DNA from: an uncultured Oscillospiraceae bacterium
Lineage (GTDB): Bacteria > Bacillota > Clostridia > Oscillospirales > CAG-382
Assembly (NCBI GenBank): GCA_964525815.1
Contig: CAZGJQ010000001.1
Span: 1-63,537, forward strand
Direction of reading: 5' to 3'
DNA length: 63,537 nt
Below the pieces are notes generated by a model, which worked only from the letters and a program-made list of their open reading frames with translations, did no database searches and was not told where the DNA came from. Positions 35,949 to 54,776 of this stretch are shown in pieces. A program made the position numbers and the translations under genes. Numbering within the stretch: the first letter of the stretch is position 1; each line of letters opens with the position of its first letter.

Positions 35949-37660
35949 TATGCTTCCTCCTTTTCCAAAACGATAGGCTCATCCAAATAATCTGCGAGCA
36001 CGATATTTATGGCATTGACATAAGAAATTCGGTCAGCCTGTCCCCAAAAGTGGAGTTGATTATCCGCAGAAGGTGTATAGTATTTCAAGAATGCCATCTT
36101 TGTGCAGAACGGAATATACTGCCCCTTTTTATCCATGTCTACAATAACATTTCTCTTTACATCAAAAGTAGAATTGTTGAGTGCTGCGTTGTCGGCAGTG
36201 TTCAGCAAAGCAAGATTGGCAATGGAGTGCAAATACTCAGTATTACCAGATACGGAGAGCATAGCAAGAACCTTTTGCTGGATTCCCTCAAATTCAGTAC
36301 GCTCGAGTTTGGATTTATCTATGGCAGCCTGCATTTCTTCAACCAACATATCGTGGCTATGCCCTATAGATTTGACCGAAGGAATATGAAGTGCAAGCCA
36401 TTCTTTCCATACCTCTTGGGTACGCATACCTTCAGATTGCTGTGCGTGGATATGCTCCAAGCTCCAAGAAACTTTGCTGCTTTTATTATACTTAAATTTG
36501 TCGAACGGAAACCATTGTGTGTGTTCGCCGTTTTGTCTTACAGATTCAACGTTGAACAAGAACAAAAGCGTGCTTATACGCTTATATTCCAAAGGTTTTT
36601 CATAACTCAACTCAGAGTAGTTACCAGATATAGCGACACTATTTTTTATGAACCCATTGAGCATAGAGTTGAACTCGTCTTTGGTTTTGTTTTCCGACAG
36701 TTCAAAAATTTTATGTAGGGTTAAAGTATTAGACGCAATAAGATAACCAATTTTATGATAAAGTTCATGGTTCTCAAACCAGTCTTTCAAGATAAGGAAT
36801 GTCTGCTGAATCTTTCTCCAAATCTTATCCAGGGAGTTTGTATTACGCATTTCATCAAACTTAAAGAATGTGTAATACTTTTCACGAGTTGAGTCTTGTT
36901 TGCCGGAAATCAAATCAAGAACAAGGTCAATGCGTGTTTGATATTTGTTTTTAATGTTATTGGTCAAAAAATACCACAAAGAATCATTGTGTAGTTCCTT
37001 TTCGATGTTATCCCATTGCAAGGAAATTTCCTCTTGCTTTTTTCTATCCATATTGTCAGAACTGTCACGGCTGAGAAACATTGCCTTTACAAGTTCAGCA
37101 CTTGTGAGAGGAATTTTGCCTATGTTCAAGCGAGTAAACAAGGAAATAGCATCTTCGTTCTCGCCAACTTCGTACCAAATAATTTTTACATCCTCTTTGA
37201 AGTATTCAAAAATGTGCATGACGCGAATCTGCATATCCTGTTCAAACCATTTTTGAATTGTTATGTATGCATTGGCAATGAACCAAAAGTCGATGTTATC
37301 TTCCTGCTTAGACAAATCAACAGTCTTCAAAAAATCTGCAGACTGTTCTCTTGTTTCGTATGAAATAGAGAATGCAGGCTCACTAAAGAATGGGTTGACA
37401 TTCTTCATGTATTTATAGATGAGATACAGGGTTGTGAGTCTCTGCTGACCATCAACAAGCTCAAAGGCTTCGCCTCTTTTACGGACGACAACAGGCTGTA
37501 GGCAATAATTATTCTTGCCATTTTGGTAAACATCGTCCAGAAGACGAGTGACTTCATCCTCGCCCCATCTATATCCCCGCTGGTATGAGGGGACAAAAAA
37601 CTCACCCTTTATTTCTCCAACAAACTTGGTAACAAGTATTATATTGTTATTTGTAGTCAT
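35948..37660 (-). CDS. GmrSD/BrxU-like DUF262 plus DUF1524 protein (type IV restriction-like)
   Basis: Trimmed to ATG 37660 (MTTNNNIILV), 11 nt after the upstream stop. It has the DUF262 motifs FFVPSYQRGYRWG and VDGQQRLTTLYLIY, plus a C-terminal DUF1524-like SLEHIHAQQSE...NLALLNTADNAALNNSTF. Confidence 0.8.
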   Translation of the reverse strand: MTTNNNIILVTKFVGEIKGEFFVPSYQRGYRWGEDEVTRLLDDVYQNGKNNYCLQPVVVRKRGEAFELVDGQQRLTTLYLIYKYMKNVNPFFSEPAFSISYETREQSADFLKTVDLSKQEDNIDFWFIANAYITIQKWFEQDMQIRVMHIFEYFKEDVKIIWYEVGENEDAISLFTRLNIGKIPLTSAELVKAMFLSRDSSDNMDRKKQEEISLQWDNIEKELHNDSLWYFLTNNIKNKYQTRIDLVLDLISGKQDSTREKYYTFFKFDEMRNTNSLDKIWRKIQQTFLILKDWFENHELYHKIGYLIASNTLTLHKIFELSENKTKDEFNSMLNGFIKNSVAISGNYSELSYEKPLEYKRISTLLFLFNVESVRQNGEHTQWFPFDKFKYNKSSKVSWSLEHIHAQQSEGMRTQEVWKEWLALHIPSVKSIGHSHDMLVEEMQAAIDKSKLERTEFEGIQQKVLAMLSVSGNTEYLHSIANLALLNTADNAALNNSTFDVKRNVIVDMDKKGQYIPFCTKMAFLKYYTPSADNQLHFWGQADRISYVNAINIVLADYLDEPIVLEKEEA

Positions 37661-37671
37661 ACTTTCCCGCC

Positions 37672-38079
37672 CTAAAGTTCTTTCAATCGTTCCAACCATT
37701 TTTGGATGCTACCATCTTTGAAAAAGCCAAGCAACGCACCGTCGCAAAATCGTTCAGCGCGGACAGCGCCCATAATCAAAGCCATTATACATTGAGCATC
37801 CAATTTTGAAACATCTGCGTCGCTCATGGATTTACTTCCCCATTCAAGCCCGTTTTGGTTCAAAACATCACCATATCTTGTCAGTTCGAAATCGCTATTC
37901 TTATCGCTGAAATCGTACACATCATCGATAAAGTGATGAACCATTTTGGAGTAGTTTACAAAAGGCATCTGAATAGGGCATTCCGGAGTGCCATCATTTT
38001 TATGGTCGATGGCCCAAGTGCCAAACTTATCTTCATCCAGATGAGGAAGATACTTTGTCAGATTTTCAAATTTACTCAT
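37672..38079 (-). CDS. DUF6508-like protein (family recalled from memory)
   Basis: Trimmed to ATG 38079 after AAGGAGG. It has PECPIQMPFVNYSKMVHHFIDDVY and a C-terminal RAERFCDGALLGFFKDGSIQKWLERLK. Confidence 0.6.
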   Translation of the reverse strand: MSKFENLTKYLPHLDEDKFGTWAIDHKNDGTPECPIQMPFVNYSKMVHHFIDDVYDFSDKNSDFELTRYGDVLNQNGLEWGSKSMSDADVSKLDAQCIMALIMGAVRAERFCDGALLGFFKDGSIQKWLERLKEL

Positions 38080-38227
38080 TTTCAACCTCCTTACCTTCCT
38101 CAAAAGTTGTGTCAATGCCTATAAGCTCCTGGACTTATTGACATTCCACATATTCGAGAGCTTTCAGACCAATCATAGAATTTTTCGTAATGATCATCCC
38201 AAGTCACCACCGACCCACGCTTTCTGG

Positions 38228-38887
38228 TTATTTGATTTCCCACACAAAGGTAGCGGTGTCGCTCACATCAATGTCATCGGGCTGGATATCCATATCAGCC
38301 ATTGCTCTCATTGGCATAGCCATAACTCTTTCTTCAAGCATATAGTCTGTGCGAGAAATAATATTGAGTTCGCCCCAATTATAATCAAGGGTAAGCAGGT
38401 CACCCAGTTCCACATCGGATGCTTCACACAGGACTTTTGCTTTTTCTCGTGCATTGATAGTAGCAGACTTCAAAAGCTCCTTATTAACTGCAGACGGGTC
38501 TTTCACCGTAAAGGCGATAGAAAGCTCCGGCTTCGCAAGGGATTTTGAAATAGCACTAAGTGTTTGAGCCAAACGCTTTGTATCGAAGTCAAATTCAACC
38601 TTTAACCGATGGCTACACACATAACCGCTGAATACGCTCTTATAATTCCCGTTTTTATTCTTAACACTCTCGTAGGCGGTGCGGACATTGAAGCTTGTAG
38701 TCCTCACTGATTTCTTCTCAAAGCCAACAGCTTCAAGAGAGACGTTAAGGTAATCAATCTGCTGTGCAGCTTGCTCCATCGTTTCTTCGTATTCCATACC
38801 TTGTGCTTCAAGGTTCATGGACACGACAACATAATCGGGAGCAGTCTTTACATTTCCCATTCCTTTGACTGTAATTGTTCTTGGCAT
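38228..38887 (-). CDS. SIMPL (DUF541) domain protein lacking a signal peptide
   Basis: It begins MPRTITVKGMGNVKTAPDYVVVSMNLEAQG, the first beta-strand of SIMPL domains, directly with no hydrophobic leader. ATG 38887 lies 7 nt after GGAGG. Confidence 0.7.
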   Translation of the reverse strand: MPRTITVKGMGNVKTAPDYVVVSMNLEAQGMEYEETMEQAAQQIDYLNVSLEAVGFEKKSVRTTSFNVRTAYESVKNKNGNYKSVFSGYVCSHRLKVEFDFDTKRLAQTLSAISKSLAKPELSIAFTVKDPSAVNKELLKSATINAREKAKVLCEASDVELGDLLTLDYNWGELNIISRTDYMLEERVMAMPMRAMADMDIQPDDIDVSDTATFVWEIK

Positions 38888-38901
38888 AGTCATTCCTCCC
38901 G

Positions 38902-41900
38902 TTATAATGATTTCATCACATCAAGCAAACGCTGATAGCTATCAACATCGTGATATTTTACATTCTCCGTGGAAATCTCATTAAAGAGTTTTCTTGCACA
39001 AGAGATTTTGGCTTTTTCAATGGGCCTCATGCTAAGGCTTTCCATTGTTCCTTTTGTTTCTGCAATAAAGAAGATGTGCTTTACTGTACCCTCGTTAAAT
39101 GCAATCGCCCAGTCGGGAGAGTAGTTGCCAACCGGAGTAGGAATATGGAATCCTCTCGGCAGCTTAGCATAAACACACACTTCATCGGCGTTATCCAAGT
39201 CCTCTGCGAATCGGCGCTCCACGCTCTTTTCTGCGTAGCCGTCAGTAAATACATAATCTTGAATATGCTTAGTCGCCTTAAACGCCTTATCGATGCTTGC
39301 CGATGTTTTTTCTGCGGTGAAGATAGTGCTGTCATATTCGCCCTCGATTTGGTCGTAGGAGATATGCTCGACAATCATTGTAGCTTTCTGCTCGTTAATT
39401 AGACGAACAACCTTGGCGATAAATTCTTCGGGGTTCGCCTTGTACATGGCAAACTTCAAAGGCGAGATGCCCTTGATAATCTCAACCACAGTCTTACGGG
39501 TGAGAACAGTGCCCTCCGCAATCTTTCCAACAAGGTCATACTTGATATGGCTTACTTCGCCTCGTTTGAGAGTGGTTGTACGGGTCTTTGCAGTCTTAAA
39601 CGCCTCGCCACGCTCCAATGCGTTTGTGCTCATTTCCTCGGTCTGTTCGCCCTTGGAGACGGTGTAGGTCAGCTCGGAAACGAACAGCTCCTTGTCGATA
39701 TGTTCGATAGCCTTTTTAATCAGCTCTGAGCTTTCAAAGGAAACGGCGTAGGCATATTTGTGATTGATACGCTTCCAAAGCTCTTGGAACTCCTGCTTAT
39801 GGAAGTTCTTGTTAAGCTCGTTCTTTTCAATTTTGGTCTGCTTGCCGTCATCAATCATACGAGCAAGAGCGGATTCATCAAAGATGGCCTGCACGAGGGT
39901 ATGTACCCCCTCTGCCATAGGAGCAAGGCTGCCGGGCATAGGAGCAAGCGTACCCATTTCCAAATCCATGCGGTACTTGTCCGTAACCTTTCTATCCATA
40001 TCCACATAGCTGTTCTGAATCAGATAGAACTCAATATTACTTGCAGTCTTTTCATCAATGGCTATAGGCTTGCCGTCTACCTTGACGAACTTGCCCTTAA
40101 AGTAATCGCTGGTAGCAGCGGTCGGGCGGTCGTATAGAACCTTCTTGATGTCGGATTGCAAATCCGCAACGAAGCCCTTATAACTTTCACTTGCGATAAC
40201 CGTCAGCTTGTTGATGTTGTGGATGCTCTCGCCGAGAACCTCCATATCCATTCTGTTACCGACCTGGTTGACACAAAGACGGAGACCACGTCCAACTTCC
40301 TGCCGCTTCTGCGTGGAGCTGTCGCTATGTTTTAGCGTACAAATCTGGAACACATTGGGGTTATCCCAGCCTTCACGCAGAGCCGAGTGAGAGAAGATAA
40401 ATCTTGTCGGCTCGCCAAAGGAAAGCAAGCGCTCCTTGTTCTTCAAGATAAGGTCATAAGCGGAAATATCATCCGAGAACTCAGAGCCACGCTTGAGGGC
40501 AGAGTTCACGCTATGACCGGTCTTCTTGTCGATACTGAAATAGCCCTTGTGGGTATCAGCGATTTCAATCTCTCGCAAATACTTCTGATACGGCGTGTCA
40601 AACATTGTCAGATATTCGTTGAGAATGGCGGTGTATTCTTCTTCAAAAATCTTTCCATATTCACCGAGTAGCTCGTTGCCGTCCTCGTCATACCGGCGGT
40701 ACTTGGCAACCTCGTCAATGAAGAACAAAGACAGGGTTTTTATACCCATTTCAAACAGCTTTTCTTCTTTCTCAAAGTGAGATTGAATGGTCTCTCTTAT
40801 TTGGATACGGCGCATATCCTGCTCAACAATATCGCCGATAACCTCGCCTTGGTGGATAACGGTGCCGCCTGTGAATGTCACAGTACCGCTAAGTGGCTCA
40901 ATGTCGGAGATAACATAGCCGTTCTTATACTGCTCCATTTCGTTTGATTTGTAGTAGAGGTCATCGCCCACGGCAAAAGTAAAGAGTTTTCGTGCGTGAC
41001 CTGCGTTCTGTGCAACCTCGATTTCCAGTTTTGCCATAGGCGGCTTGTTCGGGGACAGAATAATATTTTCAAGATAGAGATACTTGCTCGTGCCGCTGAG
41101 GTTCTTAACCTCAAAGCCCTTGACCTCAATCTTCTTAACGAGCTTTTTGTTAAAGGCATCCAGAGCATCCAGTACATACACAAGGTTGTGCTCCTTGGCA
41201 TGGGTAGCCGAATAGTTCAAGCTGAACAGAGGATTGAAGTTTTTGAGCGCCTTTTGTGTAACTTCGCCGCCCATTTTCTGCGGCTCGTCCAGAATGATGA
41301 TAGGTCTGTTCGCCTTGATAACATCAATCGGACGGCGAGAGCCGAACTCATCACGCTTGGAGTAAATAATGCGGGCTTCCTTGCTTTTTCCGTCCTCTTT
41401 CAAGGAGGAAGCGAAAGCCTGGGTATTGATAATCATGACATTGATACCGGAGCCGGATGAGAAGTTGTCAAGCTCGTTGAGGTTAGAGCTGTTGTAGATG
41501 AAGAAGCGGGCCTTCTTGCCGTACTGCTCCATAAAGTGGTCGGCGGTAATCTGGAAGGTCTTATTGACCCCCTCACGGATAGCAACGCTCGGCACAACGA
41601 CAATGAACTTGCTCCAGCCGTAACGCTTGTTCAGCTCAAACATGGTCTTGATGTAGACATAGGTTTTGCCCGTGCCGGTCTCCATTTCGATATCAAGAGA
41701 GCAACGCCCGATGTTACCAATGAGCTTGTCCGAGGTCTTGATATTGTTCTCGCTTTGTATGGCACGGATGTTTTCAAGCAACTGAGCGTCGGTCAGCTCG
41801 ATAGCTTCATTTTTATAGCCGGTGTCGCCCATGATATCGTCGTCATCATTGAGCATGGCAAGCTGCATCTGCTGATTTGGCTGGAGCTTGCCCAGGTCGC

Positions 41901-42003
41901 GGATATATGTAGTCCGGTCGTAGTTGGGCTGCCCGTTAAATACACGAACAATCGCCTCCACGGCTTCGGTTTGATACTGCTGTATCTTGAAATTGAATTT
42001 CAT
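38902..42003 (-). CDS. res: Type III restriction enzyme Res subunit
   Basis: Trimmed to ATG 42003 (MKFNFKIQQYQTEAV) after GGAGGAG. It has helicase motifs METGTGKTYVY and ILDEPQKMGG, plus a C-terminal PD-(D/E)xK (YSPDWAIAF...FIAETKG). Confidence 0.9.
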   Translation of the reverse strand: MKFNFKIQQYQTEAVEAIVRVFNGQPNYDRTTYIRDLGKLQPNQQMQLAMLNDDDDIMGDTGYKNEAIELTDAQLLENIRAIQSENNIKTSDKLIGNIGRCSLDIEMETGTGKTYVYIKTMFELNKRYGWSKFIVVVPSVAIREGVNKTFQITADHFMEQYGKKARFFIYNSSNLNELDNFSSGSGINVMIINTQAFASSLKEDGKSKEARIIYSKRDEFGSRRPIDVIKANRPIIILDEPQKMGGEVTQKALKNFNPLFSLNYSATHAKEHNLVYVLDALDAFNKKLVKKIEVKGFEVKNLSGTSKYLYLENIILSPNKPPMAKLEIEVAQNAGHARKLFTFAVGDDLYYKSNEMEQYKNGYVISDIEPLSGTVTFTGGTVIHQGEVIGDIVEQDMRRIQIRETIQSHFEKEEKLFEMGIKTLSLFFIDEVAKYRRYDEDGNELLGEYGKIFEEEYTAILNEYLTMFDTPYQKYLREIEIADTHKGYFSIDKKTGHSVNSALKRGSEFSDDISAYDLILKNKERLLSFGEPTRFIFSHSALREGWDNPNVFQICTLKHSDSSTQKRQEVGRGLRLCVNQVGNRMDMEVLGESIHNINKLTVIASESYKGFVADLQSDIKKVLYDRPTAATSDYFKGKFVKVDGKPIAIDEKTASNIEFYLIQNSYVDMDRKVTDKYRMDLEMGTLAPMPGSLAPMAEGVHTLVQAIFDESALARMIDDGKQTKIEKNELNKNFHKQEFQELWKRINHKYAYAVSFESSELIKKAIEHIDKELFVSELTYTVSKGEQTEEMSTNALERGEAFKTAKTRTTTLKRGEVSHIKYDLVGKIAEGTVLTRKTVVEIIKGISPLKFAMYKANPEEFIAKVVRLINEQKATMIVEHISYDQIEGEYDSTIFTAEKTSASIDKAFKATKHIQDYVFTDGYAEKSVERRFAEDLDNADEVCVYAKLPRGFHIPTPVGNYSPDWAIAFNEGTVKHIFFIAETKGTMESLSMRPIEKAKISCARKLFNEISTENVKYHDVDSYQRLLDVMKSL

Positions 42004-43298
42004 GTATTTGCTCCTCCTTCCAAGTAGAGAATAGCTACAGAAATCAAGGCAAGGCAACGCCTGTAAAAATAGTCGTATTGCCTGTTATCTATAATATCAA
42101 TCTTGGTCGTTTCATGATGACGGATTCTGAAACTATTCCCTATGTTGGTTAGGGCCTTAAACTCTGCTTCATACATAGATTTGAAGTTCGGCTCAGAACA
42201 ACTCATGTCGTCAATTATTTTATTTGCGGAATGTGCCTTGTCGAGTGCCGGAGAATAATACGTTTTCAGCCGTTCAAACGCATCCCAAAGCTTTTCTACA
42301 GCGATTTGCTTATTGCTATCGTGATAGTAGCGTTCAGCTTCGGTAACAAGTTCCTTTAACCCCATTTCCGATATAGACGATATCTCATTCTTGCTAATGG
42401 ACACATCAAGCGTGTTTATGAGACGACCTTGTTCAAACTTGTAATTGATGGAGTTCAGTTTGAATAATGCATTTAACTGCGCTGCAAATGCTCCTTCTGA
42501 GTTGTAATTCTCGTATAGTTCCAACGCATCAAAAACATAGAACGGAGAGTTCTTTAAGATGAATTGCTTCATATCATTAGTCTCTACATAGTTCCCGGAA
42601 GCATCATAGCATTTAGGGGTGTAAAACTGCGAGAGGTCTCGAAAAACGCATTCACTTGTGGTTATTTCGTATTGCCAACCTGTCTCATCGGTTTCCCTAT
42701 AAACTGTGGTGAATTTTTCGAGCAATGCACATAATTGGCTTCGCATCTTCATAGTCAAGGAAAGTTTCAACCGTTTGGATTTAATATCAGTTTGGTTTCT
42801 TTGAGAAAATGGTATAAACAAAGCTGTTTCCTCTGGATTATACTTCTTCCAACCATAAACATCACGACCAGATATTTTGCTTTCGGGATACAACTCATAT
42901 CCGTCATTGCGAAGCAAGCCGTTTACAGCATCGAGAAACTCTTTCCAATATCCATTTTCAACTCTCACAGCCGGATGAAATGAAGCACAAAGGAATTTGA
43001 GAAGCACCTCGTCATCGCCATCAAGAAGCTGGAACCTTTCATCTTCAAATACCCAATCATCCTCATAGTCGTTGTTGTTGATGGTGTGCTGCCAGATGTC
43101 ACCCTCTGCGTTATCAAAACGACTATCGAAGCTTGGTAAGGCAGATAAATCGTATAGCCGCTTTAGAAAATCCATTTCGCTCAATTTACCGTAACAAGAG
43201 CATTGGATTCTCTTTGATTCCCAAAATTCCTGCACGTCCATACCGTATTGAAACAGAGCGAAAATATCCCGTTTGGTTATTTCGGTAATCTGTTTCAC
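42000..43298 (-). CDS. AbiJ-N-terminal-domain-like protein with an uncharacterised C-terminal domain, inserted between mod and res
   Basis: A GTG start lies directly after the mod TAA, with AAGGAAGGTG upstream. The N-terminal pattern FLKRLYDLSALPSFDSRFDNAEGDIWQHTINNNDYEDDWVFEDERFQLLDGDDEVLLKFLCASFHPAVR matches what I recall as AbiJ-NTD4. The C-terminus has IGNSFRIRHHE. Confidence 0.65.
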   Translation of the reverse strand: MKQITEITKRDIFALFQYGMDVQEFWESKRIQCSCYGKLSEMDFLKRLYDLSALPSFDSRFDNAEGDIWQHTINNNDYEDDWVFEDERFQLLDGDDEVLLKFLCASFHPAVRVENGYWKEFLDAVNGLLRNDGYELYPESKISGRDVYGWKKYNPEETALFIPFSQRNQTDIKSKRLKLSLTMKMRSQLCALLEKFTTVYRETDETGWQYEITTSECVFRDLSQFYTPKCYDASGNYVETNDMKQFILKNSPFYVFDALELYENYNSEGAFAAQLNALFKLNSINYKFEQGRLINTLDVSISKNEISSISEMGLKELVTEAERYYHDSNKQIAVEKLWDAFERLKTYYSPALDKAHSANKIIDDMSCSEPNFKSMYEAEFKALTNIGNSFRIRHHETTKIDIIDNRQYDYFYRRCLALISVAILYLEGGANT

Positions 43299-45254
43299 TT
43301 AGAGCACCTTCCTTACTGTCGAAGGACTGATAGAAGCAAAAATTTGGTCGAAGTTTGTCAGCACCGAGTCGCTTGCCATTCCGCTGTCACGGAACACGGC
43401 GTAGTAGGGCTGCTGCTTTGCAATAGTCGTAACAACATCGTCGGAGATGTTGTTGTCAAAGCAGGCATACAAAAAGCCGTCTGCAACATTGAACACCTTG
43501 CAGCCGTTGATAGTAGTTTCCTCAATCTTGGAGGAAAGGAGCACACCGAGGTCAAGCATAACCTGAAACAGCAAATCTTCGGGAGTTCTCTCCTCTTTGA
43601 TGTTGCTGGCGTAGTTGTCAAAGGTGGCCTGCGCAACCTCGTCGGGCTTGTAGAACACTTCCTTCATGTTGGATGTGTCGCATTTGAGCACACGGAAGCC
43701 TGTGTCAAGGTTCTGTGCCGTCAAGCCGTTTTCTTCTTTGATTTTTGCGCCTGCACGGCGGATGCGTTCTTTGCCGATTTCGCAGATGTTTTTGTAGCCG
43801 GCCTTGTAAGCCTCGCTTTTTTCGTCGGTTTCTTCGGGGATTTGCACCATGATGAATTTGCGTTTGCCCCCGTCCTCGGCGTTGAGCTGCATGACTGCGT
43901 GGGCGGTGGTGGCAGAGCCGGAAAAAAAGTCCAAAATTGTATCACTGCCAGAAGAAAGCATATTCATCATGTAAGTTATGACATCAACAGGTTTCACATT
44001 TTCAAATACTCTAACACCATTAAATAAATCTTGAACGCATTGTGTGCCTACATTATATATACTCATCATTTCTTTGGGGATTAAAGTAGAAGGAGCCCCC
44101 ATAGCTTCTCCCAAATATTTTTTGATGTAAATATTCCAATGAGCTTGTTCACCGTTTGCAGATACTAGAGGGCCCGTTGTGGTCTTTTTGAATGTGACCA
44201 TATTATCCTTTAACACTTCATCGAATTTCGGACGAATAAAGCGATATATATATCCGTCCTTTGGATATACAACTTCACCATCGGGACACTCTATACCATA
44301 TTTTTGATTAACATTGGTAGATTTATTCTTAAACACAAAGTCCTTATCACGATATAGTCCTCTATCGTCTTTTTGCGTGTACATTTTGATTGCATCAGAA
44401 GACAGCGGTGCATATATTGTGTTCAAATCATTTTTATTCTTAGTGTACACAAGAATATACTCATGTGTTTTACTTGCGAACTTTGGTCTAATTCCACCTG
44501 CCGTAGAACAGTTCCAGATAAAGCAGTTTACTAGATTATCTTCACCAAAAATGTCATTGCAACATTTTTTCATGTTTTCGATTTCATTATCATCAATGCT
44601 TATTACGAGAACACCCTGGTCGGAGAGTAAGTCTTTTGCCAGTCTAAGGCGAGGATAAATCATATTAAGCCAATCAGTATGAAAACGACCGTTGCTATCG
44701 AGGTTTTTTACAAGGCGGTTGCCCTCATCATCAAACTGCCCGCTGTGTTCCATGTATTCATCGGTGCTTTGGGCAAAGTTATCCTCATACACAAAATCGT
44801 TGCCCGTGTTATAGGGCGGGTCTATGTAAATCATCTTTATTTTGCCAAGGTAGGTTTCCTGTAAGAGCTTCAACACCTCAAGGTTATCACCCTCGATATA
44901 GAGGTTTTCAGTTGTTTCAAAGTCTACACTTCCGCTGCTGCAATAGGGCTTGCCGCTGCTGTCTGCTCCTGTAGGAAATTCTTCATCATCACGAACCGGG
45001 CGCAGGGTTTTGGCAATGGGAGTATTGGCAAGCAAAACAGACTTCTTCTTGTCCGGCCATGTAAATTGATAGCGCTCCTCCTTGCCCTCAACAACCTTGA
45101 CAGAGATTTCCTGCATCAGCACATCCTTGTCAATAGCACGGACAACCTCGCCGTTCTCGTCAATAGCCTCCGTGACAGCGTTGGGGAACATAGCCGCCAA
45201 CGCTCTGAAATTATCATCGGCTTTGTTCGCCGTTTGCATTTTAAGTTTATCCAT
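43299..45254 (-). CDS. mod: Type III R-M Mod subunit (N6-adenine DNA methyltransferase, beta class)
   Basis: Catalytic IDPPYNTGNDF lies upstream of the AdoMet motif DFFSGSATTAHAV. GGAGGA is 8 nt before the ATG. Confidence 0.9.
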   Translation of the reverse strand: MDKLKMQTANKADDNFRALAAMFPNAVTEAIDENGEVVRAIDKDVLMQEISVKVVEGKEERYQFTWPDKKKSVLLANTPIAKTLRPVRDDEEFPTGADSSGKPYCSSGSVDFETTENLYIEGDNLEVLKLLQETYLGKIKMIYIDPPYNTGNDFVYEDNFAQSTDEYMEHSGQFDDEGNRLVKNLDSNGRFHTDWLNMIYPRLRLAKDLLSDQGVLVISIDDNEIENMKKCCNDIFGEDNLVNCFIWNCSTAGGIRPKFASKTHEYILVYTKNKNDLNTIYAPLSSDAIKMYTQKDDRGLYRDKDFVFKNKSTNVNQKYGIECPDGEVVYPKDGYIYRFIRPKFDEVLKDNMVTFKKTTTGPLVSANGEQAHWNIYIKKYLGEAMGAPSTLIPKEMMSIYNVGTQCVQDLFNGVRVFENVKPVDVITYMMNMLSSGSDTILDFFSGSATTAHAVMQLNAEDGGKRKFIMVQIPEETDEKSEAYKAGYKNICEIGKERIRRAGAKIKEENGLTAQNLDTGFRVLKCDTSNMKEVFYKPDEVAQATFDNYASNIKEERTPEDLLFQVMLDLGVLLSSKIEETTINGCKVFNVADGFLYACFDNNISDDVVTTIAKQQPYYAVFRDSGMASDSVLTNFDQIFASISPSTVRKVL

Positions 45255-46128
45255 TATCCTGTTCCTCCGTTTCCTTTACTGGAAATATCGTCTTTAATTC
45301 AAGGGCAATTTCTTCGGCAGTCATAGCCGCCGTTGTCATAGCCTTTCTATCGGCAATCATCGGGCTATATTCCACCACTTGTTTTTTCGTTAGGTCATGC
45401 CAAATGGGAAGGATTGTTTTCCCGTTCACCGTTTCTAACTGAAACAGAGCGTTTAGCTCAGTCTTTGTCCAATATTTATGTTCCGCTATATAATTAGGTG
45501 ATAAAACCACAATACCATATCGAGATTTTCTCAATCCGTTGTCTATTCGTTCTCTCATTGAATCTCCCCATTGCAGGCGTTGAGTATCATACCAAACCTT
45601 GAAGCCAATTTTCTCCATTTCAGCAACAAACTCATCAACAAAAGACTCTTTATCTTCAAAAGCGTGAGATACAAAAACATCATATTCTTCGCTTGTGTCA
45701 CTAATGGTATCAGTCAGAATAGTCGGAGCTAAGCTTGTTGTAACTCGCTGCCGCAATTCAGCAATTCGGGCTTCATAAGCAGACTGAACTTGCTTGCTCG
45801 CCTTGTCTTGCTTTTTCTGGTCAGCCTGCTGTGCCTTTTGCAACTTCAAATACGCATCATTACGCTTATTCCTTTTGTCGGAGATTTTCTTGCCCAAGTC
45901 TGCACTTTCGCCAGACCTTTTTGCATAGTCACCCTGCCACCCCGAAATCTGTTTCAATTTGCTCGATGCCGTAGTAGCAGATGTGCTTTTTGTTATGCTT
46001 TTTTGAGTGCTATTGATTTTCCCTTGAAGATTAGCACAGTCTTTATCTTTAGCCGCCTTTTTCTTTTCAAGGTCAGCTATTTCTTTATCAAGCGTATTAA
46101 CTTGTCTTTGATATTGGTCAATTGACAT
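45247..46128 (-). CDS. Coiled-coil plus TIR domain protein
   Basis: The first roughly 148 aa are K/Q/A-rich and coiled-coil-like. The TIR domain begins YDVFVSHAFEDKESFVDEF...GIVVLSPNYIAEHKYWTKTELNAL. It has an ATGA overlap with DUF4391 and an 8-nt overlap with mod. Confidence 0.8.
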   Translation of the reverse strand: MSIDQYQRQVNTLDKEIADLEKKKAAKDKDCANLQGKINSTQKSITKSTSATTASSKLKQISGWQGDYAKRSGESADLGKKISDKRNKRNDAYLKLQKAQQADQKKQDKASKQVQSAYEARIAELRQRVTTSLAPTILTDTISDTSEEYDVFVSHAFEDKESFVDEFVAEMEKIGFKVWYDTQRLQWGDSMRERIDNGLRKSRYGIVVLSPNYIAEHKYWTKTELNALFQLETVNGKTILPIWHDLTKKQVVEYSPMIADRKAMTTAAMTAEEIALELKTIFPVKETEEQDNG

Positions 46129-46733
46129 CAGACCACCTCTAAATCTTTCTTCAACTTATTTATCTGCTGCACCATCTCAAACTTTTTGTTCGGCTGTTTT
46201 TCTGTGCGGGCTTGTTTTTCAAGGCGGTCAATCTCTTTTTGTAGTCGCTGCCGTTTATCATCAGCCGCAATCTGTTCATCAAGGGTGTTTTCGCCCTCTA
46301 TCTCTACTCCGCCCACCTGCACGACTATATTTTCCCATACGGCATCGAGGGTTAAGCCCTTTAGCGGCAATTCGAAGGAGTTTTTCGGCTTCCATGGGGT
46401 CTGCATCAACCTTGTGTGATAAATGGCAAGTTTATGTTCATTGCCGCATTCTAAAACAAACAACATATTCTGCTCTATTAGCTTTGACAATGTGGCGATT
46501 GTGCTCTCAGCAAAGTCTTTCTTTTTAAGCATCGCCTGCACCACAAAAAAGGTTTTAACCTGCTGCCCCTCAGGGATCAGTATCTTAGCGGGCGACACTT
46601 CGTTTACAATGATGATTTTTGAAATATCGGCATCAATCTTTTCTTTTGCTGCCGTGTTCATCTGGAATTTTGAATATATCGCTTTCTTGGGGAGCTGCTT
46701 GTGCAGCTCCGTTACCTTTGGAAGTCCTAACAT
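46128..46733 (-). CDS. DUF4391 domain protein
   Basis: A 201-aa protein with FFVVQAMLKKKDF...MLFVLECGNEHKLAIYH, as I recall for DUF4391. That family is typically adjacent to SNF2 helicases and methyltransferases. Confidence 0.65.
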   Translation of the reverse strand: MLGLPKVTELHKQLPKKAIYSKFQMNTAAKEKIDADISKIIIVNEVSPAKILIPEGQQVKTFFVVQAMLKKKDFAESTIATLSKLIEQNMLFVLECGNEHKLAIYHTRLMQTPWKPKNSFELPLKGLTLDAVWENIVVQVGGVEIEGENTLDEQIAADDKRQRLQKEIDRLEKQARTEKQPNKKFEMVQQINKLKKDLEVV

Positions 46734-46737
46734 GCGC

Positions 46738-49700
46738 TCACCTCACCACTAAAAAGCATATCAGCTCAAAATCGTCTAAGCCTTTTATCTCGCCGGATAA
46801 AAAGCTAACCTGACCGCCGCCTAAAAAACTGTCAATGTCGTTTTCTTCCTTAACATCAATAATGGAATTGATAGCCTCGGAGAGAAGCTCGGAAATCTCA
46901 CTCATGTCACGGCCGTCTTCGGTTTCATCATTAAAACGGTGATACAGCTCCTCAATAGGCTTGTCCTGCCCACGGCATACAAAACGCATGATGTCAAGCA
47001 TTTTCTTGGGCTGGAGATAGTCGCAAACGACTTCGCCCTCATCGCTTACATAGACCATGTAGAACGGATGAAGTCTATTTTTGTTGTCAATGTTGATGCT
47101 CTGGGCACGGTTTTTCAAAACATAAATAACCCCCGGAGGGCAATCAGCAGAGGCAGGAGCAACGGCGTGAAGTCCCATAGGGGTGCGCTCCAGTTCGGGA
47201 TGCCGCTTGATATAATCGAGCAAATCCAGACGAAACTCGTTAAGTCCCAAGTCCATAATGGATATACCGGTTGACATTTCCTCAATATCAACCACTTCTT
47301 CTTGCAACCGTTGGAGCTGTGCTTTGCGGTATTCGAGGTCGTTCTTTTCTTCGTTGGAGAGGATATTATCGTCGCCGGTGGCGGTCATATCCACAATCTT
47401 CATTCGGGTCTCAACCTTGGATTTCAGATTGATATATTCGTCAAGAGTAATATCGGGCCAGAAGTTCACAAGCTGAATCACCTTATTTTTGCTGCCAATA
47501 CGGTCAACACGACCAAAACGCTGAATAATCCGGACAGGGTTCCAATGTATGTCGTAGTTGATAACATAGTCGCAATCCTGCAAGTTCTGACCTTCGGAGA
47601 TACAGTCGGTTGCGATCAAAATATCAATAGCGGTCTTGTCACCAGGCATCAATAGCTCTTTGTCCTTTGAAACAGGAGAAAAGCAGGTCAGAACCGTGTT
47701 CATGTCTGCCTTTTTAAGCTTAGCCGTTGTACGCCCCTCAACAGAGCCGGTGATAACAGCGGTGTGTAGGCCGAACTTTTTCTGCATATAAGGAGCGACA
47801 TTATCATAGAGGTACATTGCCGTGTCGGCGAAGGCAGTAAAGATAATAACCTTTTTATTGTCCTCATTGCTAGAGTGTTCAATCTTATTTCTGAGATCAG
47901 CCAAAAGCACCTGCAGCTTGTTGTCGTGCTCTGGTGTAATATCGTCAACCATGATGGTGAGCAGCTCCAAAATATCTTGGTCTTTTGCCAGCTCTGCTCG
48001 CCAAGAAATTCTATCCATATCGGCAAGGTCGATCTGGACCTTTTTGCCGATAGATACAAACTCATCACCATTTTGGTCATCAAGGTCGTATTCATCAGCA
48101 TTGGAGATGTCAGTAAGGTCGATTTTGGCACCGGTGGTGCATTCATAACTATCAATTGTTTTTATGGTCTCATCAATTATCCCCTTAATTCTGCGAAGCG
48201 TAAGGTTAAAGGAGAAGACAGAGCTTTCCATACGCTTCATAAGGTTTATTGCCATGAGGCGGCGAATACCAAGCTCACGGTTGGATTGAGTAAACCCTAC
48301 ATTTACTTTATTATCTCCGTACATCTCTGCGTACTTTTCCATACGGCTCGGCAGTATGTAGTGAGATGGACGGTAAATATCCAGATTGAGCTTTGCAAGC
48401 TGCTCAAATATTTCATTGTAGCTAATTGCATCCTTCAGGTCGGTCAGATGAGGTCTGTGAGACTTGGGAGGCAATCTTTCGGGGAACTTACCTATAGCGG
48501 TGGTGTCGTAGTATTTTTCAATATGTTTTCTGGAACGAGCGATTGTTACGCTGTCAAGCACTTCAAAAAAGTCAAAGTCCAACATCCTGAGCAAATTATC
48601 GGTAGTGCGGTCGCAAGGGTCCCACTTGCTCCATGTGTTGAACGCTTTTTGTGCGTTTCTGAAAATCTCATCAATAGTGTGAGAGGTTTTTAGCTTGTTA
48701 TCCAGCTGCTTAGAGTCACCCTCATAGGCGAGCTGAAGCTGATTCTTCAAATCGTTGAAACGGGTATTGACGGGCGTTGCAGACATCATAAGCACCTTTG
48801 TCTTTACGCCTTTACGAATAACCTGCTTCAAAAGTGTAGTGTAGCGATTATCTTTTTCGTCATCTTCCTTGTCCAGCTTACCGCCGTTTCGGAAGTTGTG
48901 GGATTCATCGATAACAACGAGGTCATAGGTATCCCAGCGCAGACGAGACAAATCCGTGCCGTTAGATGTGCCGTTAGTACGCCCAAGGTCGGTATGATAG
49001 AGAACCTTGTAGTTCAAGCGGTCTTCTGCGAGAGGGTTGTTGATATAGTTGTCACGATATGTATTCCAGTTGTTTGAGAGCTTCTTTGGGCAAAGAACAA
49101 GAACACTCTTGTTTCTGGTTTCGTAATACTTAATTACCGCCAAAGCAGTAAATGTCTTACCAAGACCAACAGAGTCGGCAAGAATACAACCGTTGTATTT
49201 TTCAAGTTTATTGATAATTGCAAGAGCAGCATCTCGCTGGAAGTTAAACAGCATACCCCAAACCTTGCTGTCCTTAAAGCCGGTGGCTTCATTAGGCAGC
49301 GTATCTTCGGATACATCATCCAGAAACTCATTGAAAATATTAAACAGCGTAATGAAGTAAATAAACTCTGGCGAGTTCTCATTATAAACCGCCGTGATAT
49401 TCTCAACCACTTGGTCAGTTACATCCTGGAAATTCTTCTTGTCGTTCCAAAGCTGTTCAAAGAGGTCTATGTAGCTTTTGCTCATCGGGAACGATAATCT
49501 CTGCGTGAAGTTATAGGCATAATTGCCACGCTCACAACCAAGGTCAACGGTGGTGAACTCGTTGAACGGCATATATGTGTATTGGTCCTTCTCATTCATA
49601 ACATTGAGGAATCCGGGCACTACCTGGCTGGTCGTATTGGATTTGAATGTTGCCTTTTGTTTAATCCATTCCGCACACTCTTTTGCAATAGCTCGTTGTG

Positions 49701-50004
49701 TCAGCTCGTTGCGGAGACGAATTTCAAACTCTGTACCATAGAGGTTTTGCTCACGGGTCATACGAGGAATGTAAAACTCACGCTTGGATTTCTCAGCCTT
49801 GTCCATCGTGAAAGTAGGAGAGGTAAAAATGAACTGTAAATCCTCAATACCGGAAAGGTTCTTCTTCAATTCCTCATAAGCATAGATAGAAAAGCAGACC
49901 GCTGCGATTCTCAGCTTGCTTTTCTTTGTAATTGTCTCTGATAAATCATCACGAACCCGTGTATTGATATTATCTATCATCTTTGGCATCGATATTGCTT
50001 CCAT
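46738..50004 (-). CDS. SNF2-family helicase (1088 aa)
   Basis: Motif I ILADSVGLGKTFTA, motif II VVIDESHNFRN, motif III MSATPVNTR and motif VI QRFGRVDRIGS. GGAGG lies 8 nt before ATG 50004. The N-terminal roughly 250 aa were not assigned. Confidence 0.9.
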   Translation of the reverse strand: MEAISMPKMIDNINTRVRDDLSETITKKSKLRIAAVCFSIYAYEELKKNLSGIEDLQFIFTSPTFTMDKAEKSKREFYIPRMTREQNLYGTEFEIRLRNELTQRAIAKECAEWIKQKATFKSNTTSQVVPGFLNVMNEKDQYTYMPFNEFTTVDLGCERGNYAYNFTQRLSFPMSKSYIDLFEQLWNDKKNFQDVTDQVVENITAVYNENSPEFIYFITLFNIFNEFLDDVSEDTLPNEATGFKDSKVWGMLFNFQRDAALAIINKLEKYNGCILADSVGLGKTFTALAVIKYYETRNKSVLVLCPKKLSNNWNTYRDNYINNPLAEDRLNYKVLYHTDLGRTNGTSNGTDLSRLRWDTYDLVVIDESHNFRNGGKLDKEDDEKDNRYTTLLKQVIRKGVKTKVLMMSATPVNTRFNDLKNQLQLAYEGDSKQLDNKLKTSHTIDEIFRNAQKAFNTWSKWDPCDRTTDNLLRMLDFDFFEVLDSVTIARSRKHIEKYYDTTAIGKFPERLPPKSHRPHLTDLKDAISYNEIFEQLAKLNLDIYRPSHYILPSRMEKYAEMYGDNKVNVGFTQSNRELGIRRLMAINLMKRMESSVFSFNLTLRRIKGIIDETIKTIDSYECTTGAKIDLTDISNADEYDLDDQNGDEFVSIGKKVQIDLADMDRISWRAELAKDQDILELLTIMVDDITPEHDNKLQVLLADLRNKIEHSSNEDNKKVIIFTAFADTAMYLYDNVAPYMQKKFGLHTAVITGSVEGRTTAKLKKADMNTVLTCFSPVSKDKELLMPGDKTAIDILIATDCISEGQNLQDCDYVINYDIHWNPVRIIQRFGRVDRIGSKNKVIQLVNFWPDITLDEYINLKSKVETRMKIVDMTATGDDNILSNEEKNDLEYRKAQLQRLQEEVVDIEEMSTGISIMDLGLNEFRLDLLDYIKRHPELERTPMGLHAVAPASADCPPGVIYVLKNRAQSINIDNKNRLHPFYMVYVSDEGEVVCDYLQPKKMLDIMRFVCRGQDKPIEELYHRFNDETEDGRDMSEISELLSEAINSIIDVKEENDIDSFLGGGQVSFLSGEIKGLDDFELICFLVVR

Positions 50005-50086: not shown

Positions 50087-50299
50087 TTACGCTTTGTCCG
50101 TGCGTACAGCTTCACAAATATCCCCTATGTCACAATCCAAATACTCACAAATACGCAACAGAATAGAAAGGGCTACTTCTTCTCCCTTGTTGAGTTTACT
50201 CATAGTACCTGTCGCAAGCTGCAAGTCTTTGCGTAGCTTGGGTTTAGAAATCTCTTTTTCAATAAGCAGTACCCAAAGTTTCTTATAACTAATTTTCAT
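50087..50299 (-). CDS. Small XRE/Cro-type HTH protein heading the defence island
   Basis: A 70-aa protein with KDLQLATGTMSKLNKGEEVALSILLRICEYL, an HTH_26/YozG-like motif. SD GAAGAGG lies upstream. Confidence 0.7.
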   Translation of the reverse strand: MKISYKKLWVLLIEKEISKPKLRKDLQLATGTMSKLNKGEEVALSILLRICEYLDCDIGDICEAVRTDKA

Positions 50300-50522: not shown

Positions 50523-50945
50523 TTATTCAAGAAATTGAAAAATATCGCTCTCAAGATTTATCACATCATCCATGGGTATCTTTGTTCCGTTTGTCGTTGT
50601 GATCATCCGTTCGTATTCGTCAACCTTTTTGATTTTATCTGTAGTGGTTAGGTAAGCACCGCCGGATTTTGTTTCGTCCGGTTTGAAATATGTAATAGCA
50701 ATATCGGGCTGCTCGTCCAGCCTTTCAAAGAGAATCTGAAATTTCATATTCAAGTTACTGAGAGCTTCTTCATCCAGTTCTATCTTTTCATCCGTAAGCC
50801 GACCGGTCTCCTTGATGGCGGCATCATACCCTGTAAGGGCGGCAAAAGGAGAGAATTGTGCAGCCCGGTCTTTCAAGGACATCTGCGGCCTCGTCTTTGA
50901 TATAGGATGCGGCAGATTGATAATGTCATCATAATCACCAGTCAT
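50523..50945 (-). CDS. YolD-like protein
   Basis: RAAQFSPFAALTGYDAAI and its position downstream of a Y-family polymerase, with an ATGA overlap, are typical of the YolD family. Confidence 0.75.
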   Translation of the reverse strand: MTGDYDDIINLPHPISKTRPQMSLKDRAAQFSPFAALTGYDAAIKETGRLTDEKIELDEEALSNLNMKFQILFERLDEQPDIAITYFKPDETKSGGAYLTTTDKIKKVDEYERMITTTNGTKIPMDDVINLESDIFQFLE

Positions 50946-52450
50946 GCCTTGTGTCCTCCAATCTGTGCATTCCGGTCTTTGGCGGTCGCACCTTCTTCAA
51001 GGTTCATACCCTTTAGGATGGCGTTTTTGCCGTACCGCTTCTTGATGGTCAACATGGCTTGTTGCATTTTCTTTTCTCGTTCAAGCTCTGCTTGTTCTCG
51101 CGCCTGTTTTACTTGAAGTGCCTCGTAGTCTGTGAATAAGTCGAGCTGTTCAAAGCCGACATTTTTCTGTGGTGCGGTGGATTCCTCTATCACACGACCT
51201 GCGGTGATATTCAATCTTCTTACAAGAAGGTTTTTATCTACAATACGGTCATACAGTTCCGAAACGGCAGATAATATTTTCTTGGTGGAAGATGTATAGC
51301 CGTCAAGATTTATCGTGCCATGAGCGTGTTTGGGGATTTGGCGACCATAGTGGTCTTTTGTGATTTCGCCGTGGTACTTGCTCTTGATTACAGGGTCTGT
51401 CAAATTCTCAATATCATATCCAACCGTAATAACAATTTGGTCTGTGACAAGTCCTTTGCTTACCAAGTCTAAAACAAGCAGATCTGCCATTTCACGAAGA
51501 ACGAGTTTTGCCTTATTTGTCTTGTACGGATAATGCAAGACCTGTCCCGAACCCAGACTGTTGGTAGACGGTTTATAGGCTTTTATCGCTTCAATCGTGC
51601 AAGGTTCCCAACCCCATGCATGGTCAATTAGCAGTTCCGCATTTTTCCCAAAGAGCTTGTATAGCTTGTCCTCGTCATTTACGGAGCAGCGAGCAATATC
51701 GCCCATCGTGAACATTCCATTTTCTTCGAGCTTCTTAGCATACCCTCTGCCAACTCGCCAAAAGTCGGTCAAAGGTTGGTGCTTCCATAGCGTTTTTCTA
51801 AAGGTCATTTCGTCAAGCTCTGCAACACGGACACCGTTTTCGTCGGCGGGGATATGCTTTGCAACAATGTCCATAGCGACCTTACAGAGGAACAGATTTG
51901 TTCCAATTCCTGCGGTCGCTGTAATTCCGGTTGTCTCCACTACATCCAAAATAATCTTCATGGCAAGGTCGTGCGGAGACAGCTTATATGTATTCAAGTA
52001 GTCGGTGACATCCATAAACACTTCGTCGATGGAATACACCACAATGTCCTCCGGTGCGACATATTTCATATAGACACTATAGATGCGGGTGCTATATTCC
52101 ATGTAGTGCGCCATTCTCGGAGGGGCAATTATAAAGTCTATTGCAAGTTCTGGATTTGCTTGTAGTTCTGAATATAAGTGGGACGAACCATCTTGTCTTC
52201 GCCCAGGAGCATCGTGCCGTCGCCCTATATTGGCTTCCTTAATTCTTTGTTTAACCTCAAACAATCGTCCTCGTCCAGAGATTCCATAGGACTTGAGTGA
52301 GGGTGTAACCGCCAGGCAGATAGTCTTGTCCGTGCGGCTTTCGTCTGCAACGACAAGGTTGGTGTCCATTGGGTCAAGACCTCGTTCTCTGCACTCAACC
52401 GAAGCATAGAACGATTTGAGGTCAATGGCGATATAGGTTCTTTGTTTCAT
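50942..52450 (-). CDS. Y-family (UmuC/UvrX/DinB-like) translesion DNA polymerase
   Basis: Trimmed to ATG 52450. It has IAIDLKSFYASVECRERGLDP, SIDEVFMDVT and ATAGIGTNLFLCKVA. Confidence 0.85.
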   Translation of the reverse strand: MKQRTYIAIDLKSFYASVECRERGLDPMDTNLVVADESRTDKTICLAVTPSLKSYGISGRGRLFEVKQRIKEANIGRRHDAPGRRQDGSSHLYSELQANPELAIDFIIAPPRMAHYMEYSTRIYSVYMKYVAPEDIVVYSIDEVFMDVTDYLNTYKLSPHDLAMKIILDVVETTGITATAGIGTNLFLCKVAMDIVAKHIPADENGVRVAELDEMTFRKTLWKHQPLTDFWRVGRGYAKKLEENGMFTMGDIARCSVNDEDKLYKLFGKNAELLIDHAWGWEPCTIEAIKAYKPSTNSLGSGQVLHYPYKTNKAKLVLREMADLLVLDLVSKGLVTDQIVITVGYDIENLTDPVIKSKYHGEITKDHYGRQIPKHAHGTINLDGYTSSTKKILSAVSELYDRIVDKNLLVRRLNITAGRVIEESTAPQKNVGFEQLDLFTDYEALQVKQAREQAELEREKKMQQAMLTIKKRYGKNAILKGMNLEEGATAKDRNAQIGGHKA

Positions 52451-52513
52451 GCCTCGGTCACTCCTCTCGAATAACATCAGCTATGCAAGCTGAAACTAAC
52501 TATACACAATTGG

Positions 52514-53992: not shown

Positions 53993-54046
53993 TACTTGCC
54001 TCCTTTGTTCAATCAAACAATATTCTACAAATTCTTGTTTGTTGGA

Positions 54047-54753: not shown

Positions 54754-54776
54754 CCTTTTCGTACCAAAAAGCGGAC

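Follow-up and report, generated by a model that had tools for sequence, protein, structure and literature searches.

A coiled-coil TIR gene, almost certainly for an NAD-destroying enzyme, is an exchangeable cassette in a type III-like restriction–modification operon

The window analyzed here is a stretch of 63,537 nucleotides (contig CAZGJQ010000001.1 of assembly GCA_964525815.1) from an uncultured Oscillospiraceae bacterium. It contains a gene for a coiled-coil TIR protein (CC-TIR), located between a DUF4391 gene and the methyltransferase gene (mod) of a type III-like restriction–modification (R-M) operon. Comparison with related loci showed that the CC-TIR gene is an exchangeable cassette in a hypervariable slot and not an R-M constituent, and its sequence indicates that it almost certainly encodes an NAD-destroying TIR enzyme. 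We consider it probable that CC-TIR is an embedded, exchangeable, single-gene effector that depletes NAD+ in abortive infection from the first of two cargo slots in this operon. An earlier reading of the window, made from the letters and a list of open reading frames (ORFs) alone (the sequence-only reading), had inferred a coupling that forces co-expression of the TIR gene with the R-M methyltransferase; a place of the gene among the R-M constituents is contradicted by near-isogenic elements in which another gene stands in its position. The ORF itself was confirmed, with an ATG start and 293 amino acid residues.

The sister elements that carry this other gene (L192–L201) were found through a DUF4391 protein falling in the same 90% cluster as that of the window. 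They share the window backbone at ∼95% DNA identity, comprising ImmA/HTH (helix-turn-helix), Y-family polymerase, HTH_26, SNF2, DUF4391, Mod, AbiJ-like, Res, SIMPL, DUF6508 and GmrSD genes, but carry a gene for a 742-aa AAA_13 protein in the TIR position. As shown by blastn of the window against L192, L193 and L194, the homology ends 44 nt short of the DUF4391 stop codon, at position 46172, and restarts at position 45272, 18 nt before the ATG of mod. The cassette delimited in this way has 899 bp in the window, and the AAA_13 cassette of the sister elements has 2273 bp.

The downstream end of the cassette adjoins a mod leader that derives from the host operon. The last eight nucleotides of the CC-TIR gene are the first eight of mod (ATGGATAA), and the GGAGGA Shine-Dalgarno sequence of mod lies within the CC-TIR coding sequence; both had been read exactly. 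The leader encodes the last eight residues of CC-TIR. Because the host mod leader contributes these eight TIR codons together with the Shine-Dalgarno sequence and the TAA, the overlap recurs between loci and the tail of the TIR protein is disordered in the structural model. Of 59 related loci, 13 show the identical 8-nt ATGGATAA overlap although their cargo falls into eight or more unrelated families, as the TAA comes from the conserved 5′ end of mod (ATGGATAAA); cargo and mod overlap or abut in 36 of the 59. The overlap is a generic property of the slot, and not the coupling particular to the TIR protein and the methyltransferase that had been proposed. At the upstream end, the overlapping junction with DUF4391 is real, but its motif is TGATG (stop TGA at 46130-46128, start ATG at 46128-46126; 1-nt overlap) and not the ATGA that had been reported; a true ATGA overlap is located two genes downstream of CC-TIR, at 42003-42000, where the AbiJ-like gene stops and res starts. 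All junctions across the minus-strand gene row are tight. The two neighbors were correctly named as DUF4391 and type III mod genes, and CC-TIR is co-oriented and tightly packed with mod.

The position was then surveyed in 80 species-level loci (L017–L096), which were fetched by DUF4391 homology and onto which the window proteins were mapped. DUF4391 is present in all 80, being the selection criterion, and SNF2 lies directly upstream of it in 76; the other four have little or no upstream sequence or an assembly break. The core order HTH-SNF2-DUF4391-(slot 1)-Mod-(slot 2)-Res is conserved, with ∼70% identity for SNF2 and ∼72% for Res. Slot 1, the interval from DUF4391 to Mod, was measurable in 72 loci, where its length ranges from 9 to 8244 bp and where it is empty in seven; slot 2 is the interval from Mod to Res. 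Slot 1 holds 90 ORFs in 44 clusters (∼43 besides CC-TIR), 87 of the 90 in the operon orientation, and there is one transposase among 87 slot 1 ORFs. The CC-TIR cluster occupies slot 1 in 9 of the 72 loci, and all nine members match the PDC-S66 model of PADLOC. The recurrence of a TIR gene at this position, for which the sequence-only reading had suggested a survey, is thus established, and it is also seen in a close subfamily of 80 metagenomic loci with at least 63% identity to the window TIR, where 77 of 79 testable loci have mod downstream of the TIR gene and 66 of 73 have DUF4391 upstream of it.

The remaining occupants of slot 1 are diverse: a ∼600-aa DUF4365 family (10 ORFs), RES (3), ThsB-type TIR (3), AAA_13/PrrC-like ATPases (2), SIR2 with HerA, AbiH, a KAP NTPase, Schlafen and DUF6680, together with many families without annotation. 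The largest families (the ∼600-aa DUF4365 family and those of 351–420 aa, ∼285 aa and ∼214 aa) have no PADLOC match. The genuine ThsB-type TIRs are separate slot 1 cargo, found in L036 and L080. The identity of the TIR protein is discordant with that of its host operon (84% for TIR and 55% for DUF4391 in L078; 70% and 48%, respectively, in L082), and Mod, SNF2 and Res are no closer to their window counterparts in loci with the TIR gene than in those without it.

Some individual loci of the survey deserve description. In slot 1 of L078 (10608-15163), a 459-aa ORF, a 740-aa HerA-like ORF (DUF87) and the 84%-identical CC-TIR stand in a row; the single SIR2_2 match of the slot census is probably this 459-aa ORF, in which case a single slot would contain two NAD+-targeting systems. 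In L039 (12358-12543), the TIR stop codon is followed by a 17-codon remnant of the mod N-terminus, then by a remnant of the DUF4391 C-terminus and then by further cargo. Similar duplicated mod-5′/DUF4391-3′ remnants lie between the cargo genes of L071 (∼11435-14581). From their sequences, these remnants look like scars of cassette accretion by recombination at the slot flanks. The hosts of the SNF2-DUF4391-Mod-Res operon are Clostridia, with a few metagenome-assembled genomes of Bacteroidia, Spirochaetota and Proteobacteria. The search with DUF4391 gave more than 4,700 protein clusters in all.

The protein was analyzed by profile searches and structure prediction, and the coiled-coil and TIR architecture that had been read from the ORF held good. 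Pfam places TIR_2 (3e-18, residues 151-247) and TIR (4e-13) together in residues 149-251. In a search of the PDB sequences, the matches covered residues 146-281, ranged from 1e-31 to 1e-36 and included AbTir (2e-36), BtpA/TcpB (2e-34), BtTir (6e-34) and PdTIR (4e-33), with ∼45–50% identity over the TIR domain. An AlphaFold2 model, built with 25 homologs, has helices at residues 3-44 and 51-132 that form an N-terminal hairpin, for which the block-mean predicted local distance difference test (pLDDT) value is mostly above 90 to about residue 100 and falls to 73–82 by residue 130; the TIR domain is moderately confident, and the C-terminal tail (pLDDT below 50) is disordered. The top Foldseek matches (4lzp, 7uxr, 3h16 and 7uwg) are the same four bacterial TIR structures, with target-normalized template-modeling scores (TMt) mostly of 0.73–0.79, compared with 0.35 for BcThsB.

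Seven residues of AbTir have been shown to matter, and its E208A mutant is inactive (Manik et al. 2022). These residues (G174, S176, K202, W204, T205, E208 and W227) correspond to G188, S190, K218, W220, T221, E224 and W243 of CC-TIR, and all seven equivalents are invariant in the 25 homologs. The catalytic glutamate, the absence of which would have told against the sequence-only reading, is therefore present as E224. The PDC-S66 model (PDLC05062) matches residues 1-282 to its profile positions 1-280 of 282 at 8.4e-98; the ThsB models of PADLOC also match the TIR domain (e.g., PDLC00417, 7e-36), and the Pfam ThsB_TIR family (PF08937) was not matched. Sequence and predicted structure place CC-TIR, as a coiled-coil TIR protein with intact catalytic residues, in the AbTir/TcpB/BtTir clade.

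An assayed ortholog is available for this protein. The homolog P0066, 68% identical to CC-TIR over its full length, has the very sequence (100% identity) that Weagley et al. (2022, PMC9092222) provide as supplementary material for CLOBOL_01188, a protein of Clostridium (Enterocloster) bolteae ATCC BAA-613. It occupies the same slot in the genomes and metagenomes of E. bolteae, in the order SNF2-DUF4391-TIR-Mod-AbiJ-like-Res, and it has the same coiled-coil and TIR architecture, although the species and the mobile element (an integrase element, then IS66) are different. Previous work has shown that the CLOBOL_01188 TIR domain converts NAD+ to ADP-ribose (ADPR) and nicotinamide, the ADPR being non-cyclic (Weagley et al. 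2022), and the protein was used as a representative producer of non-cyclic ADPR (Manik et al. 2022). The NADase assay suggested in the sequence-only reading has in effect been passed by this same-slot ortholog, albeit with an isolated domain, expressed in E. coli, of a different protein. The formation of ADPR, and not of a cyclic signal, fits the absence of a ThsA-like partner. The CLOBOL_01188 transcript was present at ∼45 transcripts per million in the ceca of gnotobiotic mice (PMC9092222; phage infection was outside the scope of that study). These papers treat the protein as a gut NAD-metabolizing enzyme, and a term search of the text of Weagley et al. (2022) found no passage in which its location within an R-M operon is discussed. 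HMPREF0367_01592 was considered as a second assayed ortholog and rejected, being a different protein, a Sel1-repeat TIR. Among the E. bolteae-type loci L005, L007 and L008, some are without SNF2, and DUF4391 is truncated to 110–127 aa beside a Dam-like methylase and phage tail/baseplate genes; TIR-Mod-AbiJ-like-Res is intact in them, and the operon may therefore have been rearranged where it borders on a prophage.

Beyond the slot, 242 clusters were found at E ≤ 1e-30 against CC-TIR among 1.84 billion representative proteins, matches to the TIR domain only being included. The best 150 of the 242 clusters contain ∼100 full-length homologs of 280–295 aa with 30–53% identity, and by this homology the coiled-coil plus TIR architecture is that of a large family. 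A member with 53% identity to the window TIR lies in the same slot, one with 42% directly follows a lone type III Res on a serine-recombinase element, one with 35% (P0414, L183/L184) follows a Dcm/EcoRII type II system, one with 38% is solitary in Catenibacterium, and one with 41% is on a short contig with a protein kinase gene nearby. In L152, a family member follows a UvrD-like gene. In this small sample, the family is not tied to the SNF2-DUF4391 core, yet it shows an affinity for R-M neighborhoods. In L183/L184, the genes after the 35%-identical CC-TIR encode a DUF3574/SAM-lyase-like protein, a NUDIX hydrolase and a short-chain dehydrogenase, an unusual neighborhood for a defense gene. The BtTir-like protein P0258 has its gene in a region resembling a defense island and not in an R-M slot. 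The viral contigs searched held no relatives, and tblastn against plasmids gave matches to the TIR domain only (e.g., DUF1883-TIR), with no full-length homolog.

In the reading that we prefer, CC-TIR would be co-transcribed and translationally coupled with the operon, as suggested by the gene packing and the shared leader. The protein would be made constitutively and held inactive, possibly as a coiled-coil-mediated dimer by analogy with AbTir; constitutive expression of an NADase would in turn imply post-translational control. In AbTir, the coiled coil drives dimerization, the full-length enzyme starts out suppressed, and the TIR domains become active on forming a higher-order assembly (Manik et al. 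2022). A hypothetical infection cue would permit the TIR domains of CC-TIR to assemble in the active head-to-tail form, and the hydrolysis of NAD+ to ADPR and nicotinamide would lead to cell arrest or death, as a second layer beside restriction. The alternative offered in the sequence-only reading, an abortive back-up that is triggered by the failure of restriction, is a possibility. A second-messenger receptor would not be needed because the TIR protein itself would be the effector, and cassettes would be turned over by recombination at the conserved flanks.

Several points tell against this proposal. PDC-S66 is one of 145 PADLOC candidates, and an anti-phage phenotype of the family is putative. 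The promoter and terminator scans gave counts at chance level and were not used, so that gene packing is the sole ground for co-transcription. The full-length enzyme could form another product than the isolated domain of the ortholog. The near-confinement of the close subfamily to the slot is what a host-dependent, PrrC-like effector would show as well, and of the five distant contexts examined, two are again beside R-M genes.

These last two points lead to a guard resembling PrrC, in which CC-TIR would be bound and silenced by Mod/Res or by SNF2-DUF4391 and would be released to deplete NAD+ when a phage anti-restriction protein disables restriction. The near-exclusive occurrence of the close subfamily in the slot resembles that of PrrC, for which little occurrence outside type I R-M has been described (Payne et al., bioRxiv 10.1101/2024.01.29.577857), although flank-mediated cassette exchange alone can explain slot confinement. 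Two more distant family members directly adjoin R-M genes, but a solitary member also exists. A PrrC/RloC-like AAA_13 protein stands in the same slot of the sister elements, many NAD+-targeting or suicide effectors occur in the slot (TIR in 12 slot 1 cargo ORFs, RES in 3 and SIR2 in 1), and CC-TIR is tightly packed with, and would be translationally coupled to, mod. However, the presence of the TIR gene does not co-vary with Mod, SNF2 or Res, and the core is intact in the loci with an empty slot 1. Neither do the other cargo proteins share the coiled-coil domain, so there is no common docking module: phmmer and a coiled-coil hidden Markov model, used to look for a shared N-terminal docking domain among slot 1 cargo, matched CC-TIR genes only. 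Such silencing by the restriction machinery is, in our judgment, unlikely.

We are equally doubtful of a broader version, in which SNF2-DUF4391-Mod-Res is a modular chassis whose two slots take interchangeable suicide effectors, each physically gated by the restriction complex. The effectors of such a chassis may include CC-TIR, ThsB-type TIR, RES and SIR2 NADases, PrrC-like ATPases and DUF4365 nucleases. If this were true, CC-TIR would fire NAD+ depletion when anti-restriction factors cripple the type III enzyme, and the operon would be a generalized PrrC/EcoprrI guard with plug-in effectors.

The NADase could also be a signaling enzyme, as in Thoeris, with the TIR domain making a cyclic ADPR isomer that activates a separate effector (the AbiJ-like, SIMPL or DUF6508 protein, or one encoded elsewhere in the genome). 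The closest solved relatives, AbTir and BtTir, make 2′-cyclic ADPR (2′cADPR), the aromatic residue required for cyclization is present as W220, and ThsB models match the TIR domain, as given above; the product of CLOBOL_01188 is nevertheless non-cyclic, and the fold is distant from that of BcThsB. As the sequence-only reading had noted, a ThsA-like partner is lacking: in the Pfam and PADLOC scans, neither the operon nor its flanks showed a SIR2/SLOG, macro, SAVED or CARF domain, and no ThsA effector was found adjoining the TIR gene in related loci. The SIMPL and DUF6508 genes, which had been put forward as partners, are retained in the TIR-less sister elements and absent from all other informative TIR loci, which removes them as candidates. 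The AbiJ-like gene was rejected as an obligate partner, since no more than two of the nine species-level loci with the TIR gene have it as well (Fisher p = 0.17); RhuM is found there in L009. A cyclic signal with a separate receptor is thus rated very improbable.

The AbiJ-like gene is a second, independent exchangeable cargo. It is absent from the near-isogenic sister locus L194, where slot 2 is empty. Slot 2 is variable like slot 1, with 37 gene clusters across 59 loci, and its occupants include RhuM, AbiJ-like, Abi_C, nucleoside deoxyribosyltransferase-like, DUF2971, YhcG nuclease and Schlafen proteins. The 295/299-aa gene upstream of the TIR gene in L152 and L009 was also rejected as a conserved partner, the two proteins being without similarity.

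Finally, the NADase might not be antiviral: it could be an addiction or stabilization toxin of the mobile element, or could act on the gut environment or the host, and hitch-hike in the slot. Its relatives were first studied as virulence factors interfering with Toll-like receptors (TcpB/BtpA) and as sources of gut NAD metabolites, CLOBOL_01188 is transcribed in vivo in a study without phage infection, and the locus lies on a region resembling a conjugative element, with a relaxase and an ImmA/HTH pair. Against this, the slot is filled almost only with co-oriented genes of defense type (AbiH, SIR2-HerA, ThsB-type TIR, RES and PrrC-like) and the single transposase; Pfam sees only the TIR domain and the remainder is modeled as a long helical hairpin of cytoplasmic type, no dedicated signal peptide search having been made; and no conserved cognate antitoxin adjoins the CC-TIR gene. 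A role outside defense is accordingly given little credence, and an embedded abortive-infection effector is retained as the probable function.

The setting of the operon in the window is summarized in Table 1. The operon shows what defines a type III R-M system, namely Mod with a variable recognition domain and Res with helicase and endonuclease, encoded in one operon. It is atypical in its additional SNF2 and DUF4391 genes, and Res falls under the cut-off of the NCBIfam type III Res model. Assignment to DISARM, Dpd or Zorya was rejected, as no core gene attains an NCBIfam equivalog cut-off; SNF2 is under that of DrmD. The HTH_26 gene at the head of the operon matches a VanU-like HTH at 3e-21 in NCBIfam, also under the curated cut-off. 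The start of res is the ATG at 42003 and not the TTG at 42057 of the ORF list; it is preceded by GGAGGAG and is supported by related loci, which gives a Res protein of 1033 aa and not of 1051 aa. The center of mod (∼43932-44543) cannot be aligned between sister elements that are otherwise 91–95% identical, and Mod lengths vary from 613 to 651 aa. These sequence differences suggest that target-recognition domains are swapped in Mod, with differing methylation specificities as a consequence. The SIMPL, DUF6508 and GmrSD genes downstream of res make the region a defense island, and they travel with the element backbone and not with the TIR gene.

Table 1. Positions of the CC-TIR gene, its domains, the cassette and the surrounding operon in the window
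Feature	Position	Strand	Basis
CC-TIR gene	45247..46128	-	Pfam TIR_2; PADLOC PDC-S66; 68% identity to CLOBOL_01188
N-terminal helical hairpin/coiled-coil domain, residues 1-132	45733..46128	-	AlphaFold2; conserved in full-length homologs to ∼30% identity
TIR domain, residues 147-282	45283..45690	-	PDB sequence search and Foldseek
Codon GAG of the predicted catalytic glutamate E224, in the WxxxE motif W220-T-K-T-E224	45457..45459	-	Aligns to AbTir E208
Exchangeable cassette, 899 bp: last 14 DUF4391 codons and nearly the whole TIR gene	45273..46171	-	blastn and junction alignments
Host-derived mod leader: GGAGGA 45263-45268, mod ATG 45252-45254, cargo-ending TAA 45247-45249	45247..45272	-	Conserved upstream of mod with unrelated cargo
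HTH_26 regulator gene, 70 aa, operon head	50087..50299	-	Precedes SNF2 in related loci too
SNF2-family helicase, 1088 aa, core host gene	46738..50004	-	Pfam SNF2-rel_dom, ResIII, Helicase_C
DUF4391 gene, 201 aa, core host gene, left anchor of slot 1	46128..46733	-	Pfam DUF4391 5e-31
Type III Mod methyltransferase, 651 aa, core host gene, right anchor of slot 1	43299..45254	-	PADLOC MTase_III 4e-216; Pfam N6_N4_Mtase 8e-34
AbiJ-like gene, 432 aa, slot 2 cargo	42000..43298	-	Pfam AbiJ_NTD3 8e-54; C-terminal half matches PADLOC PDC-S32 8e-51
Type III Res endonuclease, 1033 aa, core host gene	38902..42003	-	PADLOC REase_III 2e-290; Pfam ResIII and RE_endonuc
SIMPL (DUF541), DUF6508 and two GmrSD-family genes (583 and 732 aa), downstream of res	33750-38893	-	

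An integrative conjugative element of a gut Clostridia bacterium is the probable carrier of the entire locus. Features of a mobile element in the window include the relaxase (32202-33575), a 2917-aa ORF (21329-30082), a Y-family polymerase with a YolD-like gene (50523-52477) and ImmA/IrrE-HTH pairs at 54211-55196 and 55630-56394. Another variable patch is found at 52482-54152, where the window has an ORF of 500 aa (52514-54016) without a Pfam match and with a GC content of ∼0.32–0.39; the sister elements have a GNAT acetyltransferase and a metallo-beta-lactamase-fold gene, or a 147-aa ORF, at the same place, between flanks that are ∼95% identical.

If CC-TIR is an embedded effector as proposed, the gut-microbiome NADase CLOBOL_01188, which has been studied with its relatives as an NAD-metabolizing enzyme or virulence factor, would acquire a genomic context of defense type, and the missing ThsA-like partner would be explained, the TIR protein probably being itself the effector. 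A widespread Clostridia operon would then have two cargo slots, with at least 44 and at least 37 clusters, respectively, across 80 species, most of them unannotated. It would be a ready source of new defense candidates because the guilt-by-embedding survey left this host out, and a natural system for the comparison of autonomous and R-M-guarded embedded effectors. What is new is the type III-like SNF2-DUF4391-Mod-Res host, which lies outside the survey of Payne et al. and is unnamed in NCBIfam, together with the nucleotide-level boundaries of the cassette and the link between CLOBOL_01188 and defense; literature searches for DUF4391 and for combinations of TIR, R-M, embedded and NADase returned no paper describing this arrangement. 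The TIR finding extends known patterns and does not break them, and the platform is the more promising lead.

Among known systems, the nesting of defense genes in defense operons is established by PrrC in EcoprrI, BrxU in BREX and the survey of Payne et al. (bioRxiv 10.1101/2024.01.29.577857). PDC-S66 is the same full-length family as CC-TIR and belongs to a candidate set drawn from genes that lie within BREX, DISARM or type I R-M systems, so the statement of the sequence-only reading that TIR domains are not known as parts of type III R-M operons was too strong if taken for R-M operons at large; the name PDC-S66 was not found in the supplements of the preprint. As in that survey, the CC-TIR gene is nested in the same orientation as its host, its position is variable between related hosts or empty, and the family occurs outside the host (in a small sample). 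The hosts surveyed there were Hma, BREX, DISARM and type I R-M only, whereas the host here is type III-like with SNF2 and DUF4391. Thoeris likewise has a TIR domain in an anti-phage context; here, however, no ThsA adjoins the gene, the protein belongs to the AbTir clade and not to ThsB_TIR, and the product of the ortholog, according to the literature, is not cyclic. AbTir, BtTir, TcpB (BtpA) and PdTIR share the active-site residues of CC-TIR (WxxxE and the BB-loop Gly/Ser), and AbTir also has an N-terminal coiled coil, but AbTir and BtTir make 2′cADPR, whereas the closest assayed ortholog of CC-TIR makes ADPR. PrrC, of the type Ic R-M system EcoprrI, is likewise a suicide effector whose gene lies among those of the R-M subunits and is expressed together with them, as CC-TIR would be. 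PrrC is held inactive by the R-M complex and freed by the phage Stp peptide, while such control of CC-TIR is hypothetical; and PrrC cleaves tRNA, whereas CC-TIR is predicted to hydrolyze NAD+.

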